This document shows, piece by piece, positions 23,399-30,115 of a stretch of DNA of 64,000 nt. The notes beneath the pieces were generated by a model that was not told the DNA's origin, did no database searches, and was given only the letters and a program-made list of their open reading frames with translations. Numbering within the stretch: position 1 is the first letter of the stretch; each line of letters begins with the position of its first letter. The stretch covers positions 3,584,001 through 3,648,000 of the forward strand of contig OZ242296.1 of assembly GCA_965207735.1 (NCBI GenBank), given 5' to 3'. This DNA is from Candidatus Versatilivorator sp. (GTDB taxonomy: Bacteria; Acidobacteriota; Terriglobia; Versatilivoradales; Versatilivoraceae). Both the position numbers and the translations under genes were made by a program.

Positions 23399-23746
23399 AT
23401 GCGCAGACTAAATCAGTTGCCGTGGAGCCCGGATTCCAATTTAGCCAGAAGGGCTTCCCATATATCCGAAAGAGATAGTGCCAACGCGTGTGATCCACGC
23501 GAGCTCAAGCGGTCACCCTCAAGACCGCGTCCGGCTTGGTGGGCGCTCCTCACCTTCTATTGGCTTCTATTCCCGCCGCCGACCTACGCCTACATCGACC
23601 CCGGGACCGGCAGCTACATTCTGCAGGTGGTGATCGCAGGCCTGTTGGGCGCATTGGTTTCTGTCAGGATCTATTGGGCAAGGATCAAGGCCTTCTTCAA
23701 GGGAAACCCGCCATCGGGTGGAAATGATCCGGGCAAGCATGAGTGA
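23399..23746 (+). CDS. Small membrane protein with YIDPGTGS motif (start uncertain)
   Basis: Hydrophobic stretch, then TYA|YIDPGTGS, then a TM helix and basic tail; stop overlaps the next ATG by 8 nt. Confidence 0.65.
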   Translation: MRRLNQLPWSPDSNLARRASHISERDSANACDPRELKRSPSRPRPAWWALLTFYWLLFPPPTYAYIDPGTGSYILQVVIAGLLGALVSVRIYWARIKAFFKGNPPSGGNDPGKHE

Positions 23747-25130
23747 TTCGATCGAAGGCCTGCCTTCCTCCTTTCGCGATCCCAGCGGATTTCTGTTTCT
23801 CGACCAGGGTGTGCTCTACCGGCAGGTCAATCGCAGTTACCGCGAAGACTATGACCACTTCGTGGGCTCCGGTCTGTTCGATAGCCTGGTGGATGCGGGA
23901 CTTTTGGTCGCTCACCGGGAAGTCACGCCGCCGGGGCCGGAGCCGCAGGAACGCTACAAGACTCTCAGGCCGGAGCCGCTGCCCTTCATCTCCTATCCCT
24001 TCGAGTGGAGCTTCAGCCAGCTCCAGGATGCCGCCCTGACCACGCTGGCGATCCAAAAGCGAAGCCTGGAACATGGCATGTCCCTCAAGGACGGCACCGC
24101 CTACAATATCCAGTTCCGGGAGGGGAAACCCCTGTTTATCGATACCTTGTCCTTTGAAAGGTACTCGGAGGGCCGGCCCTGGACAGCCTATCGTCAATTC
24201 TGCCAGCATTTTCTGGCGCCTCTGGCGCTGGCTAGCTACTCCGATATTCGACTCGGCCAGTTGCTCCGGATTCACCTGGACGGGATTCCTTTGGACCTGG
24301 CCAGTCACCTGCTACCCTTTCACACCCGATTCCGGTTTTCCCTGCTGACCCACCTTCATCTTCACGCCAAGGCCCAGACGCACTTTGCCGACAAGCCCGT
24401 GCGCCAAGTCCACCGGTCCGTCAGCCGCAGGGCGCTGCAGGGCTTGATCGAGAACCTGGAATCCTGCGTGGCGGCGCTCAATTGGAACACGCCCCAACAG
24501 GAATGGGCTTCCTACTATGGGGAGACCAATTACACGAGTGCGGCCTTTCGGCACAAGGAGCAACTGGTGGGCGAGTATCTGGACCGAATCAACCCCAAAC
24601 CCGATATGGTTTGGGACCTGGGCGCCAACACGGGACTGTTCAGTCGTCTGGCCGCGAGCCGCGGGATGACCACTATCGCCTTCGATCAGGATCCCGCCTG
24701 CGTTGAGCGGAACTACCGGGTCTGCCGGCAGGAAAGGGATACCAACATCCTTCCCCTATGGGTCGACTTGACCAATCCCAGCCCCAACCTGGGATGGCAC
24801 GGGCGTGAACGAATGTCCCTGTTGGATCGAGGCTCCCCGGACGCGGTTCTGGCCCTGGCTCTGATTCACCACCTGGCCATAGCCAACAACCTGCCTCTAT
24901 CCCGGCTGGCTGGTTTTTTCGGCGAACTGTGCCGCACTCTGGTCATTGAGTTCGTCCCCAAGACGGACTCGCAGGTGCAAAGGCTGCTGGCTTCGAGGGA
25001 GGACATCTTTCCGAACTACACCCAGGAGGCCTTTGAGCAGGCTTTCGGACGTTATTTCGAAATCAGAGCGGTCAGCAAGATCAGACAAACGGAGAGGATG
25101 CTGTATCGAATGGAGAGAAAACGACTGTGA
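23739..25130 (+). CDS. NoeA-like protein: N-terminal kinase-like region fused to class I SAM-dependent methyltransferase
   Basis: SFRDPSG, ISYPFEWSF, LKDGTAYNIQF, FIDTLSF; C-terminal VWDLGANTG SAM motif I, LALALIHH. Confidence 0.75.
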   Translation: MSDSIEGLPSSFRDPSGFLFLDQGVLYRQVNRSYREDYDHFVGSGLFDSLVDAGLLVAHREVTPPGPEPQERYKTLRPEPLPFISYPFEWSFSQLQDAALTTLAIQKRSLEHGMSLKDGTAYNIQFREGKPLFIDTLSFERYSEGRPWTAYRQFCQHFLAPLALASYSDIRLGQLLRIHLDGIPLDLASHLLPFHTRFRFSLLTHLHLHAKAQTHFADKPVRQVHRSVSRRALQGLIENLESCVAALNWNTPQQEWASYYGETNYTSAAFRHKEQLVGEYLDRINPKPDMVWDLGANTGLFSRLAASRGMTTIAFDQDPACVERNYRVCRQERDTNILPLWVDLTNPSPNLGWHGRERMSLLDRGSPDAVLALALIHHLAIANNLPLSRLAGFFGELCRTLVIEFVPKTDSQVQRLLASREDIFPNYTQEAFEQAFGRYFEIRAVSKIRQTERMLYRMERKRL

Positions 25131-25187
25131 AACTGCTGCTCATCCGGGGTGGGGACGAGCGAGCCATGTACGGCCACATGACACTGG

Positions 25188-27734
25188 TTACTTGTCCTTC
25201 ACATTCAGGCTGACTCTCACCATGGCCGCGGCCAATCTTCTGACATCCGATCCACCGCCGATGGATTTGGGGGAGATGGCGTCGGGCAGGTCGAATTCGA
25301 TCGTGATTCCCCTGGAGTCGACCAGTTCCTTTGGGATGGTCGCCTGCAACGTGTGAGTTTTTCTCTCGGTGACTGTCCATTCACCGACCTTGTTTCTGTT
25401 GGCTAAAACACGAATGGTTTGCTTGGGCACCCGCTCTTCTCGCAGGAAGGGCCGGAGCACTGCCTGGAGGACGAGATCATTTTCAGGAACGGGCACCGGA
25501 ATATGGAGGCCGGCGAGGTGTCCGCTGGTCCAGCGGAAATTGTCCTGGGCCGTCTTGCTCCACCCCCTACCCAAGAAGGCGTCAGCGTTACCATCCCTTC
25601 CGAATCGAATCTGTGTCCCGTACTGGTAGCCCGGCCAAGGATGCAGGCTGAGGGAACGCATCAAAATGGCCAATTTTCTGCCGTCGCCTCCGGCGCCAAT
25701 CGACCTGGGTGAAACCGCGTTGGGTAGATGGAATCGGATCTCCATCTCCGAAGAATTAACCAGTGCCTTTGGAATTACGGCCCGGAAATGGTGAGCCCTT
25801 TGTCGACTCGCAGACCAGAGATCGATCTTTGTGCCATTGGTAAGGACGTGAATTTGTTGTTCCGGGACCTCCGTTCTGATGTAAGGCCTGAGAGCAGCCT
25901 TCAAGAGGAGATCAGTCTCAGGTACAGCCAACTTGATCTTCAAGCTTGAGCTGTGGCCATTATTCCAGCAGCCGTGACTCATCGGCGAGCTCCACCCGAA
26001 ACCTAGAAAATCGTCTGCATTCCCCAACAGTCCGAAAGTGATGTCGGTACCGAATTCGTACTGGGGTCTCCTTCTCGATACTGCAACGGCCTCGCCACCG
26101 AGGCATGACGCCGGATCAAAAACGTTGCCTCTAATCAAATACTTGGTAACCTCCGGCTCTCCACTGGACGTGCGGTATGTTACGAAAGGACGACTTCTTG
26201 ACTCTCTCGGGGAGATTTCAAAAATAGGTCGGCCGGAAAACCTTCCATCTACTCCACTCGCTTTCATGATGGTCGTTGCAATGTCCAAGAGAGACGTTTG
26301 AGCCCTCGAAACCGTCAGGTCCCCCGACCTTCCTGGAAGCTTCATCGTTAGTAGTGCAGCAAGCCGGGGGACACAGGTATCGATCGTTTTCCCATCGATA
26401 ACCGGTGCAATCTGGCTGCCATGATCGCCTTGCAGAATAATGAGGGATGAATCGTAGAGGTTCAATTCCTTGAGTCGATTCAATAACTTCAGAAAAAGCT
26501 TCAGGATTGCCCGCGCTTCGTTCCGGTAGTTTTCTCTGGTATTGGGAAGGACACGGCCCGCATAACTTCCGTCAGCCCGGGTGACATAGGGAGGGTGTGG
26601 CGGTATGAGGTGGAGGAAGTGATAGGCCGGTTGGGGATCGCCCACAAAAATGCTCCCCGCGTAGTCATTGAAGAACGCCTTTTTCTGGAAGGAAGAGACA
26701 TTCCTGTGTCCGGCCACCAGCGGTGTGATCAACCAATTGTTGTCGTTGTAGATTCCATAGCGAGCCCAATGGGGAAGTTGCCGAAACAACGCCACATCCA
26801 TGAGGTGGGCGGCGTTGAGTTGAACCACTTCCTCCGGCGAACCCATGTAAACTCTTGGGATGCTGTAGTAGTTCGTGTACTTGCCTTCCCGCATGGACTC
26901 CAAGGGAACCAGGTTCACGTTATATCCTTCATCGTACAGACGGTTTTGAAATCCATTCCGGACCGATTCTCGGTAATAGCTTCCCGGAAGCTGTTTCCCA
27001 TCATAAATCTGACCGGAGAAGATGGCCGGAATCGAAAACGAAGTGTAGGGAGCAACCCCCATGTTGTCTTCGAACAGAACAAAGCCCTCCAGGTCATCTT
27101 CCAGTTGCTGCTCGACCACCAGTTCCCTGAAAACGTCGGTTTGAAAGCTGTCCAAAATAATGTGAACGATGTTCTTTGAAGAGGAATAGCCAAGCAACTC
27201 GGTTGGAACTCGGTGCTGGGCGGTGTACTCCTTCCACCACAGTCCTCCTTCGGAAGTGAGGCTTAGTGTCAACATCAAAACCGATTGGAGACCAATCAGC
27301 GTCCAGCTGGCATGTGAGGTGATGTTGATCAGGTAGCGTGAAAAACCCAGGCCGGCTGCCAAGACCAGGACCCATAGCGACGCATCCATCCAACCTCGCA
27401 GGCCAAACTGCGACCAATCGATTCCTCTTCCATCGAAGACTCCGTAGGTTCCCACCAGAAAGCTTCCTTGAACCCAGAGCAGTAGTCCGAGGCAAAAGAT
27501 TGTGCACACGAGTCCCTTTACGGCTCGGCTCGGAATCATGAAGCCGATCAGAAGGAATGCGGCAGTGAACAGAAGACTGGAAAGACCGTATATGGGGAGG
27601 AGGCTCCGATAGCCTACTTCGAACTCCTCGAGGTTCCCCCGGTATACGGAAAAAGTCCCGAAAACAAATAGATTGGCGGAAACCAATAGAGAGGGAGGCA
27701 GTACTTGTTTCAGCCTGTGCATTGGTCGGAGCAT
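25188..27734 (-). CDS. Membrane alkaline-phosphatase/sulfatase-superfamily transferase with duplicated C-terminal beta domain
   Basis: About five N-terminal TM helices, ILDSFQ, PYTSFSIP (Thr at the nucleophile position), HPPY, GDHG; two ~140-aa C-terminal repeats containing GWS...W. Confidence 0.75.
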   Translation of the reverse strand: MLRPMHRLKQVLPPSLLVSANLFVFGTFSVYRGNLEEFEVGYRSLLPIYGLSSLLFTAAFLLIGFMIPSRAVKGLVCTIFCLGLLLWVQGSFLVGTYGVFDGRGIDWSQFGLRGWMDASLWVLVLAAGLGFSRYLINITSHASWTLIGLQSVLMLTLSLTSEGGLWWKEYTAQHRVPTELLGYSSSKNIVHIILDSFQTDVFRELVVEQQLEDDLEGFVLFEDNMGVAPYTSFSIPAIFSGQIYDGKQLPGSYYRESVRNGFQNRLYDEGYNVNLVPLESMREGKYTNYYSIPRVYMGSPEEVVQLNAAHLMDVALFRQLPHWARYGIYNDNNWLITPLVAGHRNVSSFQKKAFFNDYAGSIFVGDPQPAYHFLHLIPPHPPYVTRADGSYAGRVLPNTRENYRNEARAILKLFLKLLNRLKELNLYDSSLIILQGDHGSQIAPVIDGKTIDTCVPRLAALLTMKLPGRSGDLTVSRAQTSLLDIATTIMKASGVDGRFSGRPIFEISPRESRSRPFVTYRTSSGEPEVTKYLIRGNVFDPASCLGGEAVAVSRRRPQYEFGTDITFGLLGNADDFLGFGWSSPMSHGCWNNGHSSSLKIKLAVPETDLLLKAALRPYIRTEVPEQQIHVLTNGTKIDLWSASRQRAHHFRAVIPKALVNSSEMEIRFHLPNAVSPRSIGAGGDGRKLAILMRSLSLHPWPGYQYGTQIRFGRDGNADAFLGRGWSKTAQDNFRWTSGHLAGLHIPVPVPENDLVLQAVLRPFLREERVPKQTIRVLANRNKVGEWTVTERKTHTLQATIPKELVDSRGITIEFDLPDAISPKSIGGGSDVRRLAAAMVRVSLNVKDK

Positions 27735-27833
27735 GATTCTGGGTCGGGGACGAGTTGTACGACTAATTTACTGTTGAGGGTTTCTTCAATTCGTGGGTGA
27801 CTCCTGAACACTGCTTGAAAAGAGAGACTGAAG

Positions 27834-29810
27834 TTACTCATTGCGGAAGATTACTTTCACCCGAGAGAGGTCCAACGAAGAAGTATCGTAGTCGTAGCGA
27901 ACCAGGTGATCGACAATCCGCTGCAGGTCCTCTGCCGGTGAGAAATCATCCGGACAGGGTCTTGTGTGACCGTTGACCTTCGACGCTATAGCCACGTTCT
28001 TGCGCAACTGAAACTCGAAAACCGTGTCGCATCGAATTACCGACAAACGGCCGAGTGAAAAGAACGGTGGAACATTGTGGGAAGGGGTTATCTGCCTGCG
28101 GGCTACCACCCCGCGCCCATGAATCCGATCGGCTGTGAAAATGGTGCGCCCGGGATTCGGATCCCCCGCGATCAAAGATTGCCCCCTCATCCATCCCGGA
28201 CGATCCATTCCCAGGTAGTCAAGCAAGGTAGGAGCAATATCCAGGTTTTGAGTGTTGGAAGACACTCGGCGTAGGCGGTCATCAGTTGGAAATAGAAACA
28301 TCAAAGGAACCCGTTTCCTGTTGCTGTGCTTGACTCCGTGATCGGACGTGATAACCACGATTGTGTCCTTTAGCAGGTCTCGGTGGGCCAATCCCAGGAG
28401 GATCTTGTTCACGTTGAAATCAAATTGCAATATGGCATCGTCGTAGAAGTCCGTCATCCACGGCTCGTCCTGTGTCTTGCCCTCGGAGAAAACGCGTCGG
28501 TCAGGATTGAATTTCGACCCATGGGTCCCCAGCATGTGGAGGTAGACGAAGAAGGGCTCCTCTCCCTCGGCCAACCACCGCCAGAGTTGGACGATTCGCT
28601 CGGTATCGCCTCGCGACTGGTAGGGGCCTCGAACAAGCTGCTCGAATGCGTCACTCATCCTCTCTACATCGAAGACGTGCAGGAGCCGACTCTCGATCCG
28701 GTCGCGAATCTGGGTCAGGAAGTAGGCGGCCCCCTGTCCAATCGCACCAGTGAGCCACTCCGGCATCAGGAAACCCTTCAGTTCCCTATCATTGGCCCAG
28801 TCAAAGGAATGACGCATATTGAGGTCGTAGGCATCGGCATAGTAACGGAGGCCAATGTTGGCGTTGCGGTATCCGAGCGTTTTCAGGATTGACGGCAGGT
28901 GCTGGTAAGCATCCTTTCCCGTCAGGATATCGGGCGGATATATGAGGCGCGTTTCGGTGGGAAGCTTCCCCGTCAGAATGGAAGCAACGGAAGCGGCCGA
29001 AGGTCCGGCATTGGGGAAGTTATTCTCGCAAAGCAGCGATCTTTCGGCCAGTTTCCTCAGGTAAGGGGTCGTGTCCCTGTCGTAACCGTACAGTGACATA
29101 TGCTCGGCCTCGACACCGTCTCCAACGATCAGGAGCATGTTGGGCAGCGCTCGGTTCTTCAGGTGTGTGCCGACCGGTGTGGACGCTGATATCTTGCGAG
29201 TCCCCACGTAGGCGGTCCCGACCAGCGTGATCGAAACCAATGCGGCGCATGCAGTACCGAGTGAACGACCGAGCCTGTGGCGTGAGATGGCCTGTATCGC
29301 CTGCCAGGTCGGCAAGTAGACCGCCACAGCAATCAACAGCAGAAGCGCCTGATACACCAGCAACCCCTCGGCATCCACGTGCCTGATGCCCCAGCCCAGC
29401 ACCGTCAAGGTGAAGTTGTCGACCATCAGAAAGGCGGCCAGAGCCAGCACCCCTGACGGAAGCACGAGACACACGGCAACCCAAAGAGAGTGGAAAAGGA
29501 GGGGAACCTGGAAGCGAGCCAGCGCGAAGCCGCAGCGAATCAAGGCCCCGACCAGCCAGTACAGCACCAGGGGTGCGACCATCGCCACCAGCACTGGACC
29601 GGAGGAAACCGCGAGAATGAGCAGAGACTCCGACAAAGGCAACGAGGACATGAATGACGGCTTGGTAGCAAAGAATAGCCACTCCATGAACACGTAGAAA
29701 TACACGGCCAAGCATGTAAGTCCGACGATTCGTCCCCAAGTTTCAGGATCCGGGAGCCGGACGGCCTTTGAAGCAACCTCGACCTGTTTGCGCCATTCCC
29801 ATTTCATCAT
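27834..29810 (-). CDS. Membrane sulfatase-like hydrolase/transferase
   Basis: N-terminal TM helices, PNMLLIVGDG, YGYDRDTTPYL, SILTGK, YDDAI, TSDHG; lacks C/SxPxR. Confidence 0.78.
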   Translation of the reverse strand: MMKWEWRKQVEVASKAVRLPDPETWGRIVGLTCLAVYFYVFMEWLFFATKPSFMSSLPLSESLLILAVSSGPVLVAMVAPLVLYWLVGALIRCGFALARFQVPLLFHSLWVAVCLVLPSGVLALAAFLMVDNFTLTVLGWGIRHVDAEGLLVYQALLLLIAVAVYLPTWQAIQAISRHRLGRSLGTACAALVSITLVGTAYVGTRKISASTPVGTHLKNRALPNMLLIVGDGVEAEHMSLYGYDRDTTPYLRKLAERSLLCENNFPNAGPSAASVASILTGKLPTETRLIYPPDILTGKDAYQHLPSILKTLGYRNANIGLRYYADAYDLNMRHSFDWANDRELKGFLMPEWLTGAIGQGAAYFLTQIRDRIESRLLHVFDVERMSDAFEQLVRGPYQSRGDTERIVQLWRWLAEGEEPFFVYLHMLGTHGSKFNPDRRVFSEGKTQDEPWMTDFYDDAILQFDFNVNKILLGLAHRDLLKDTIVVITSDHGVKHSNRKRVPLMFLFPTDDRLRRVSSNTQNLDIAPTLLDYLGMDRPGWMRGQSLIAGDPNPGRTIFTADRIHGRGVVARRQITPSHNVPPFFSLGRLSVIRCDTVFEFQLRKNVAIASKVNGHTRPCPDDFSPAEDLQRIVDHLVRYDYDTSSLDLSRVKVIFRNE

Positions 29811-30115
29811 TGGCAAACCATCCCCTCGCTGGCGGCCGGATCAGTCGAGATTCCGAGTAATCTCATTGATAAAGGTTCCGAGTTCAACTTCGAAGTGCAA
29901 TACCCTGGCAGGCTGGAGATGCTTTCCGCAAAAGGGAATCAGTGTAGTCTCAGGAGGCTGGATTTTCAAGGGCGGCAGTTTGGCGGTAGCCGACCTCGTG
30001 GCCGCTCGACTCCAAGCGTGGCGTCATCCTTTCCAAGGGTCCCCGGGAACAGTACTCCGGCCATGTGCTATAGTCAGGCCATCGGTTATCCACGGGCAAA
30101 ACTCCGCTCATCCAC

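Follow-up and report, generated by a model that had tools for sequence, protein, structure and literature searches.

A YIDPGTGS micro-membrane protein of the NoeA/NoeB module as a possible tyrosine shuttle for surface modification

Why does a short reading frame with the motif YIDPGTGS overlap the gene of a NoeA-like enzyme in Candidatus Versatilivorator sp. (Acidobacteriota), and what could its product do there? The window, which is the whole stretch of DNA analysed, comprises 64,000 nucleotides of contig OZ242296.1, and the features of interest are collected in Table 1. A sequence-only reading had described the product as a leader, a TYA cleavage-like site, YIDPGTGS, a transmembrane helix, and a basic tail, and had suggested that the peptide is an acceptor, carrier, or scaffold in an undescribed surface-modification system. 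This anatomy was confirmed in the sequence, as was the 8-nt overlap with the next gene, which arises because the next ATG lies at 23739.

Table 1. Positions of the microprotein gene, its parts, and its neighbours in the window.
Feature	Position	Strand	Remarks
YIDPGTGS micro-membrane protein	23399..23746	+	115 aa precursor; mature form 51 aa (predicted)
Leader	23399..23590	+	n-region long and variable; h-region AWWALLTFYWLLF; PPPTYA as predicted signal peptidase I site
YIDPGTGS motif, Tyr1 invariant	23591..23614	+	from sequence and homologue alignments; Tyr1 codon at 23591
NoeA-like protein, 463 aa	23739..25130	+	kinase-like domain and class I SAM methyltransferase
NoeB-like membrane transferase of alkaline-phosphatase (ALP) fold (EptA/LtaS-like), 848 aa	25188..27734	-	Pfam Sulfatase; Thr nucleophile position intact
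Second membrane ALP-fold protein, 660 aa	27834..29816	-	Pfam Sulfatase; HHalign 96.8% to the NoeB-type alignment over the catalytic domain

The microprotein ORF (ATG to TGA) translates into a leader ending in AWWALLTFYWLLFPPPTYA, followed behind the putative cleavage site by YIDPGTGS-YILQVVIAGLLGALVSV-RIYWARIKAFFK-GNPPSGGNDPGKHE. The transmembrane helix comprises 17-19 hydrophobic residues (hydropathy 2.0 over 19 residues), and the h-region of the leader, placed after a 45-residue n-region, reaches only 1.1 over 15 residues. Judged from the sequence, the signal would be cleaved directly before Tyr1, and the mature peptide is predicted to hold its N-terminal tyrosine outside, to span the membrane with one helix, and to keep its basic, amphipathic tail on the inner side. 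Eight of the nine genus loci share the position of the ATG and a purine-rich stretch upstream of it; most relatives also have a second ATG 21 codons in, where the ORF of the window has ATA. A sigma-70-like promoter was looked for at the locus and none was found.

By conservation the ORF is a real gene, and its core is under purifying selection. The motif is present in a single copy in the source genome (G000; 5.26 Mb, 62% GC, 100% complete), and the ORF was matched in all 13 genomes of the same genus and in 24 of the 41 genomes searched, the close homologues being named as Acidobacteriota. The dN/dS values, obtained from nine of the ten fetched genus loci (L005 was missed by the exact-motif filter), are 0.14 for the motif with the transmembrane helix, 0.24 for the h/c region, 0.79 for the n-region, and 0.69 for the tail. 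RNA-library contigs of relatives (below 95% identity, three studies) span the microprotein gene into noeA, such contigs being unable to show transcription. Between the convergent stops (window positions 25161-25198) the relatives' contigs have 180 other bases in place of 36.

The family to which the microprotein belongs is large. A profile of 24 members matched 13,952 clusters at 50% identity (E up to 0.001), and the exact pattern AY[IL]DPGTGS was confirmed in at least 549 stretches of GTDB from many phyla. With a profile of the 38-position core, matching genomes amounted to 5/201, 17/201, 19/201, 14/251, 17/201, and 1/9 in six samples by phylum, with one centre genome per sample having been picked for the motif; two HMM matches, L248 and L290, were discarded as spurious. 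The module also reaches the archaea, with a Woesearchaeota record annotated with a fused form. The family has no match in Pfam, NCBIfam, PHROG (24 members searched in these three), or among PDB sequences, and in the ESM Atlas the homologue P0054 leads to hypothetical clusters only. Viruses contribute one locus, compared with the at least 549 genomic stretches; it is a viral contig of 40.8 kb (L372). The HMM and the tabulation of neighbours across genomes, which had been proposed together with the sequence-only reading, yielded both homologues and a recurrent neighbourhood.

Tyr1 is the only invariant residue, and no member seen has phenylalanine instead. It is found in all 52 loci selected through NoeA and, in two sets biased towards the profile, in all 140 anchored top HMM matches plus three unanchored ones and, of 80 motif-centred matches, in every one of the 78 true rows (two of these rows are one copy). 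In the 52 NoeA-selected loci D3 is kept in 48, P4 in 38, G5 in 46, G7 in 43, S8 in 47, and Q12 in 51, position 6 is T in 14, S in 32, A in 5, and V in 1, and position 9 exchanges freely (Y 20, L 16, F 9). A helix face made of Q12-A16-G20-F23 is conserved as well, together with K26/W29. At Thr6 and Ser8 several members have residues without a hydroxyl group, which makes these two positions unlikely acceptors; among the exposed Tyr/Thr/Ser suggested earlier, the tyrosine is the one that does not change. Ala precedes Tyr1 in 133 of the 140 anchored homologues. Tyr1 is placed at or near the N-terminus, either because an AxA-type site immediately precedes it or because a start Met is no more than 12 residues away (76 of 81 TagF fusions). 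Since the tyrosine would come to lie at the N-terminus by AxA-type cleavage or by a leaderless start, a free alpha-amine on it is not required, and what seems to be needed is a short N-terminus ahead of Tyr1. Four Planctomycetota copies (L339-L342) have no clear signal peptide and no partner in 11-14 kb, and in two of these four genomes NoeA was found elsewhere. A truncated remnant lacking the Tyr motif directly follows a NoeB-like gene in L365 (G002:C1 near 3485000).

The NoeA-like protein has no clear transmembrane helix and shares 37% identity with S. meliloti NoeA over 98% of its length (E 4e-62). Its N-terminal kinase-like domain, a kinase according to PMC9758233, contains R28, D118, N123, and D135, and its C-terminal methyltransferase domain contains D293-x-G295; the kinase residues and the SAM motif are invariant or nearly so in 46 sequences. 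The AF2 model of a NoeA homologue (pLDDT 93) has WbdD as top Foldseek match, and the top six by Z include three phosphate O-methyltransferases, MePCE, BCDIN3D, and WbdD, in ties with unrelated methyltransferases (Z 16-18.5). The fold matches cover the methyltransferase half only, and for the kinase half no fold match was found in the structure searches.

The pairing of microprotein and NoeA is widespread. Of the best 80 GTDB loci, 74 have a NoeA-like gene (directly downstream in 69) and 54 an ALP-fold membrane protein, in agreement with the methyltransferase and sulfatase-like neighbours that the sequence-only reading had named; only L061, at a contig edge, has neither. Independently of the motif, NoeA alone was searched for in three phylum samples (8/201, 39/201, and 14/151 genomes), and 52 of the 62 matches were fetched, three of them from centre genomes that had been picked by motif. 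In all 52 loci the microprotein is no more than 1.5 kb away from NoeA (49 found by HMM, three divergent ones by eye). Five further NoeA loci lack an adjacent microprotein, these genomes having been picked since their copy lies elsewhere, and NoeA was not found in three of the ten genomes tested for it. Within the genus the microprotein-noeA pair is fixed and the ALP-fold neighbours vary, and in P0081 NoeA is fused to the module. The proposed translational coupling to the NoeA-like enzyme is supported.

The 848-residue NoeB-like gene is convergent with the noeA-like gene, and its product is assigned by HHalign at 98% to the NoeB alignment, transmembrane part included. Relatives of the 660-residue protein adjoin NoeA in two other loci (L034, L268). 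The best matches of a NoeB-type model (pLDDT 90) are full-length EptA and MCR-1. NoeB-like proteins share with EptA, MCR-1, and LtaS the combination of a transmembrane and an ALP-fold domain, the Thr/Ser nucleophile, and the metal ligands; however, NoeB is only 10-11% identical to them, and those enzymes use phospholipid donors and need no microprotein. The nucleophile is T or S in 45 of 45 NoeB sequences, about half of the sequences ending at a locus edge. All five genus genomes lacking a downstream ALP-fold gene have a homologue elsewhere. The GC content of window positions 25000-30000, which hold the two ALP-fold genes, is 0.50-0.59 compared with about 0.62, and this low GC together with the presence downstream in only some genus genomes suggests an exchange of ALP-fold genes. 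A second, unlinked paralogue of the 848-residue protein (29% identity) is encoded at G000:C1:1973058-1975184.

By sequence comparison the window locus is a member of the NoeA/NoeB module, as it combines a kinase-methyltransferase NoeA homologue, an ALP-fold NoeB homologue, and a small signal-bearing ORF. NoeA and NoeB have been host-range genes since 1995, and we know of no chemistry assigned to them. The nod box n5 operon nodL-noeA-noeB of S. meliloti likewise has NoeA and a NoeB of ALP fold, and in Sinorhizobium a 71-residue YLDPGTGS ORF lies between nodL and noeA (strain 1021, E. canadensis). Unlike this operon, the window lacks nodL and has two ALP-fold genes in convergent orientation. The listed rows of the S. 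meliloti 2011 Ribo-seq CDS table (PMC10117765) have nodL and noeA in consecutive rows and contain neither the coordinates of the 71-residue ORF nor the motif. The noeA and noeB genes of pSymA are among the highly expressed genes of the nodule fixation zone, according to PMC10945364, and this expression may point to a role in the bacteroid envelope.

The trio had already been recognised in 2022, by bioinformatics, as a set of genes conserved around a NoeA-like kinase (PMC9758233). There, the Lani_1193-1194-1195 neighbourhood has a hypothetical neighbour in 65% of 816 neighbourhoods, ten of the 17 homologue rows among those listed in the supplement carry a Sec/SPI call, and the small neighbour gene is termed a likely effector, with neither motif nor chemistry given. 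Based on position, size, and signal, Lani_1193 would belong to the microprotein family. Therefore, the system is not undescribed as far as the trio with its small hypothetical neighbour is concerned; its motif, family, and chemistry were not found in the literature searched. Searches for YIDPGTGS, DPGTGS, and YIDPGSGS returned no relevant paper, most subscription papers lying outside the reach of the search. The present analysis contributes the linkage in 52 of 52 loci found without using the motif, the invariance of the tyrosine, the module's fusions to outside enzymes with an anchor of their own, the count of partner classes, and the finding that ALP paralogues vary.

NoeA is not the only partner. 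In a hand tally of the 78 motif-centred rows, which include kin and shared operons as non-independent samples, NoeA accompanies the module in 44, a TagF-like protein in 9, an NPP-like phosphodiesterase in 8, an aryl-sulfotransferase (ASST) in 3, a sulfotransferase plus ALP-fold protein in 1, phosphonate genes only in 1, an ALP-fold protein only in 6, and none of these, judged within the fetched DNA, in 6. Among longer proteins 86 matches were found, mostly TagF-like PF04464 proteins beginning with the module, but also one NoeA fusion and ASST fusions. Of 79 metagenome TagF-fusion loci, 70 encode a YidC-plus-ALP protein of roughly 900 residues, 48 a nucleotidyltransferase (representatives are PntC-like, transaminase-fused, or heptose-type), and 13-14 PEP mutase plus decarboxylase. 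The YidC-ALP nucleophile is T in 70 of 70, an HHalign comparison of NoeB with the YidC-ALP fusion yielded nothing significant, and 15 of the 53 TagF loci with full-length YidC-ALP have two to three copies. A split version with free microprotein, separate TagF-like gene, and ALP-fold gene is present in four loci (L334, L336, L345, L347). No CDP-alcohol phosphatidyltransferase was found on the same contig in any of the five phosphonate genomes tested, and no relevant paper joining phosphonate, YidC, and glycerophosphotransferase was found. Model YidCs have a canonical groove Arg, and its loss (S/T/N in 70 of 70) was considered as a special trait of the fused YidC domains; this idea was dropped because the housekeeping YidC of the source genome (L271, G000:C1:3544401) also has Asn there.

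Sulfate-type surroundings recur, too. A PAPS sulfotransferase together with an ALP-fold gene lies near the microprotein in L251, NPP-like fusions lie beside cysD/cysN in L331 and L332, and Tat-type NPP genes adjoin APS kinase in L256 and L259. Ten of the eleven ASST/NPP fusions have their own second transmembrane anchor that puts the enzyme on the side of the tyrosine, and thus the module is not needed as an anchor there; the ASST fusion L329 has a single transmembrane segment. No PAPS sulfotransferase was seen beside the three ASST-fusion loci. In L328 (6710-9423) two ASSTs and in L256 (3949-8214) two NPP-like proteins plus APS kinase flank the module, and in each case one enzyme lacks a clear export signal and the other is predicted to be outside; such pairs of the same fold are possibly inside-outside relays. 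Carbamoyltransferase genes occur near sulfate-type loci (L251:1259-3007, L257:8073-9836). The source genome encodes two NPP-like genes (G000:C1:3145494-3149882 and 2312815-2314668) that have no microprotein motif nearby and are both about 41% identical to the microprotein-fused NPP domain.

Across these loci the same set recurs: an inside enzyme that handles an activated anion, a microprotein with an irreplaceable tyrosine, and at least one outside ALP-fold or ASST enzyme. The suggestion that the genes modify the envelope and that the peptide serves there as a carrier or scaffold is supported as probable. We favour, at a confidence slightly short of even, that the microprotein is a DltX-like tyrosine shuttle for surface modification. 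The NoeA-like enzyme would first place a phosphate on Tyr1 and next a methyl group on that phosphate, giving methylphospho-Tyr; from this aryl diester the NoeB-like enzymes outside would pick up the methylphosphate with their Thr nucleophile and pass it to a surface glycan or lipid. To meet the cytoplasmic enzyme, Tyr1 might either be loaded before export, in a single use, or flip by way of a membrane groove, either of YidC type or in NoeB; the YidC domain dedicated to the TagF loci fits such flipping. Elsewhere the cargo of the shuttle would be aminoethylphosphonate, where TagF-like and PntC-like genes are present, or sulfate, where there are genes for ASST, sulfotransferase, and APS. Directly underlying this reading are the gene anatomy, the invariance of Tyr1, the inside and outside partners, the intact catalytic motifs, and the fusions to both; that NoeA makes a methylphosphate diester is suggested by analogy to WbdD, and we further infer that Tyr1 bears the group, that the N-terminal segment reaches the cytoplasm, and that a surface glycan or lipid is the final acceptor.

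By established chemistry, outside enzymes of the ALP-fold and ASST kinds work well with aryl phosphodiesters and aryl sulfates as donors. ASSTs use aryl sulfate donors (PMC13426309), and shuttles with an invariant tyrosine are established for acyl groups in DltX and PatA, as PMC12148441 describes. Together, established acyl shuttles and good aryl donors favour a tyrosine shuttle, and by analogy the microprotein probably works like DltX. The C-terminal FXYXXF acyl shuttle of DltX/MBOAT systems (DltB/DltX/DltD, PatA/PatB) also has one invariant tyrosine in a membrane microprotein or fused module, and there the tyrosine links an inside donor to an outside transferase with a Ser/Thr intermediate (same source). 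However, the tyrosine is N-terminal here and not C-terminal, the motif Y[IL]DPG[TS]GS is unrelated to FXYXXF, an MBOAT or SGNH core partner and a known loading tunnel are missing, and the predicted cargo is phospho, phosphono, or sulfo instead of acyl. SGNH genes near the microprotein are lone ones in L254 and L330 only, the recurrent partners being NoeA, TagF-like, and ALP-fold proteins.

The main weakness of the shuttle is that Tyr1 is predicted outside and NoeA inside, and the NoeA loci contain no MBOAT-like tunnel protein. The invariance of the tyrosine could also reflect a binding pocket, and Q12 is nearly as conserved in the NoeA type. The closest folds of NoeB, EptA and MCR-1, use lipid donors, and the fold matches of the methyltransferase model are ties among many unrelated methyltransferases. 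The ASST loci lacking a PAPS sulfotransferase, the single-helix fusion L329, the microprotein-free NPP genes of the source genome, the six partnerless rows, and the three genomes in which NoeA was not found also speak against it.

In the main rival reading, which we regard as doubtful, the microprotein is an adaptor of a lipid-donor pathway that tethers the inside enzyme to the membrane and brings it into contact with the membrane transferase. NoeA would make a lipid methylphosphodiester (phosphatidylmethanol-like or polyprenyl) with Tyr1 as a binding determinant, the lipid would cross the membrane, with YidC-like domains as scramblases in the TagF loci, and NoeB would use it as EptA uses phosphatidylethanolamine. 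The matches of the NoeB model to full-length EptA and MCR-1, the conserved helix face with K26/W29, and the fixed microprotein-NoeA pair amid varying ALP-fold neighbours are in line with this, as is the N-terminal module being the only transmembrane segment of the TagF-like and NoeA fusion proteins. A scramblase activity of YidC has been published (10.1101/2023.09.01.555937, PMC11997395). However, it is hard to reconcile an adaptor with a tyrosine that never changes to phenylalanine and is strictly placed at a short N-terminus, and with modules fused to outside enzymes that are already anchored. In addition, a linked phosphatidyltransferase is absent in all five phosphonate genomes, and by established chemistry an alkyl sulfate lipid is a poor ASST donor.

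Improbable, in our view, is that the peptide itself is the final acceptor, with the NoeB-like enzyme modifying Tyr1 outside and the product serving as a signal or surface tag. The topology problem would vanish, since Tyr1 is predicted to face the same side of the membrane as the active site of the ALP-fold enzyme, and the invariance of the tyrosine would fit. However, several exchangeable ALP paralogues per single microprotein suggest that the acceptors differ and the donor is shared, the loci are often found among glycosyltransferase genes, and the donor of NoeB would be left unexplained.

There is equally little chance that NoeA acts in the manner of WbdD and directly adds methylphosphate to a glycan or a Nod-factor-like molecule while this is in the cytoplasm, with the microprotein replacing the membrane tether of WbdD and the ALP-fold protein editing or removing the group. 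WbdD (E. coli O9a), the top Foldseek match, also unites kinase and SAM methyltransferase in one chain, and it phosphorylates a sugar (mannose) and then methylates the phosphate (PMC3482155); a modification of the Nod factor by NoeA/NoeB has been suggested in print. In contrast to WbdD, NoeA has the reversed domain order (kinase first, methyltransferase second), no coiled coil in the model, and 15% identity, and it travels with a microprotein and an outside transferase; the arrangement of WbdD-type terminators (methyltransferase-kinase order with a coiled-coil ruler beside an ABC-transporter O-antigen locus) was not found. Capping would also leave the invariant outside tyrosine and the fusions to outside enzymes unexplained, there are microprotein-NoeB pairs without adjacent NoeA (L020, L023, L028, L031), and the family occurs in many phyla without Nod genes.

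A structural peptide of pilin, phage-coat, or sortase type, polymerised or transpeptidated at xPxTG, for which size, the leader-helix-basic layout, and the DPGTG word speak in the sequence, and to the first two types of which the sequence-only reading had likened the layout, is largely refuted and thus very improbable: the type IV pilin class III signal, G/FxxxE with cleavage after G, is replaced by an SPI-type Ala at -1 and a mature start Y[IL]DP, the 24 members have no PHROG match to inovirus major coats and the family no other profile or PDB match, phage context is confined to the single viral locus, xPxTG is not conserved (T6 in 14 and P4 in 38 of 52), the complete source genome has no sortase (PF04203), and no pilus or phage genes are among the recurrent neighbours. 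The microprotein is thus no member of the pilin, phage-coat, or sortase-substrate families, nor of the DltX family.

Returning to the tyrosine shuttle, its extension to a general cross-membrane route for activated phosphate, phosphonate, and sulfate by a one-helix microprotein with N-terminal tyrosine is speculative and on balance unlikely. The tyrosine would be loaded in the cytoplasm, the N-terminus would cross a YidC-type groove, and ALP-fold or ASST enzymes would unload the group onto surface polymers. PMC6697681 describes as unknown how activated phosphonates are passed on to cell-surface polymers, and such a route would supply the missing tailoring steps, a natural aryl donor for some ASSTs, and the chemistry of NoeA/NoeB, as a phosphoryl counterpart of DltX.

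One unannotated module of 50 residues thus links the chemistry of NoeA/NoeB with the problem of surface phosphonates, and an overlooked copy of the family sits inside the host-range operon nodL-noeA-noeB of the alfalfa symbiont. In this model symbiont the module permits a test by a single residue, the exchange of Tyr for Phe. Should the shuttle hold true, enzymes of the EptA/LtaS fold can use a peptide instead of a lipid as donor, and this peptide donor would be present in thousands of protein clusters from many phyla including some archaea.
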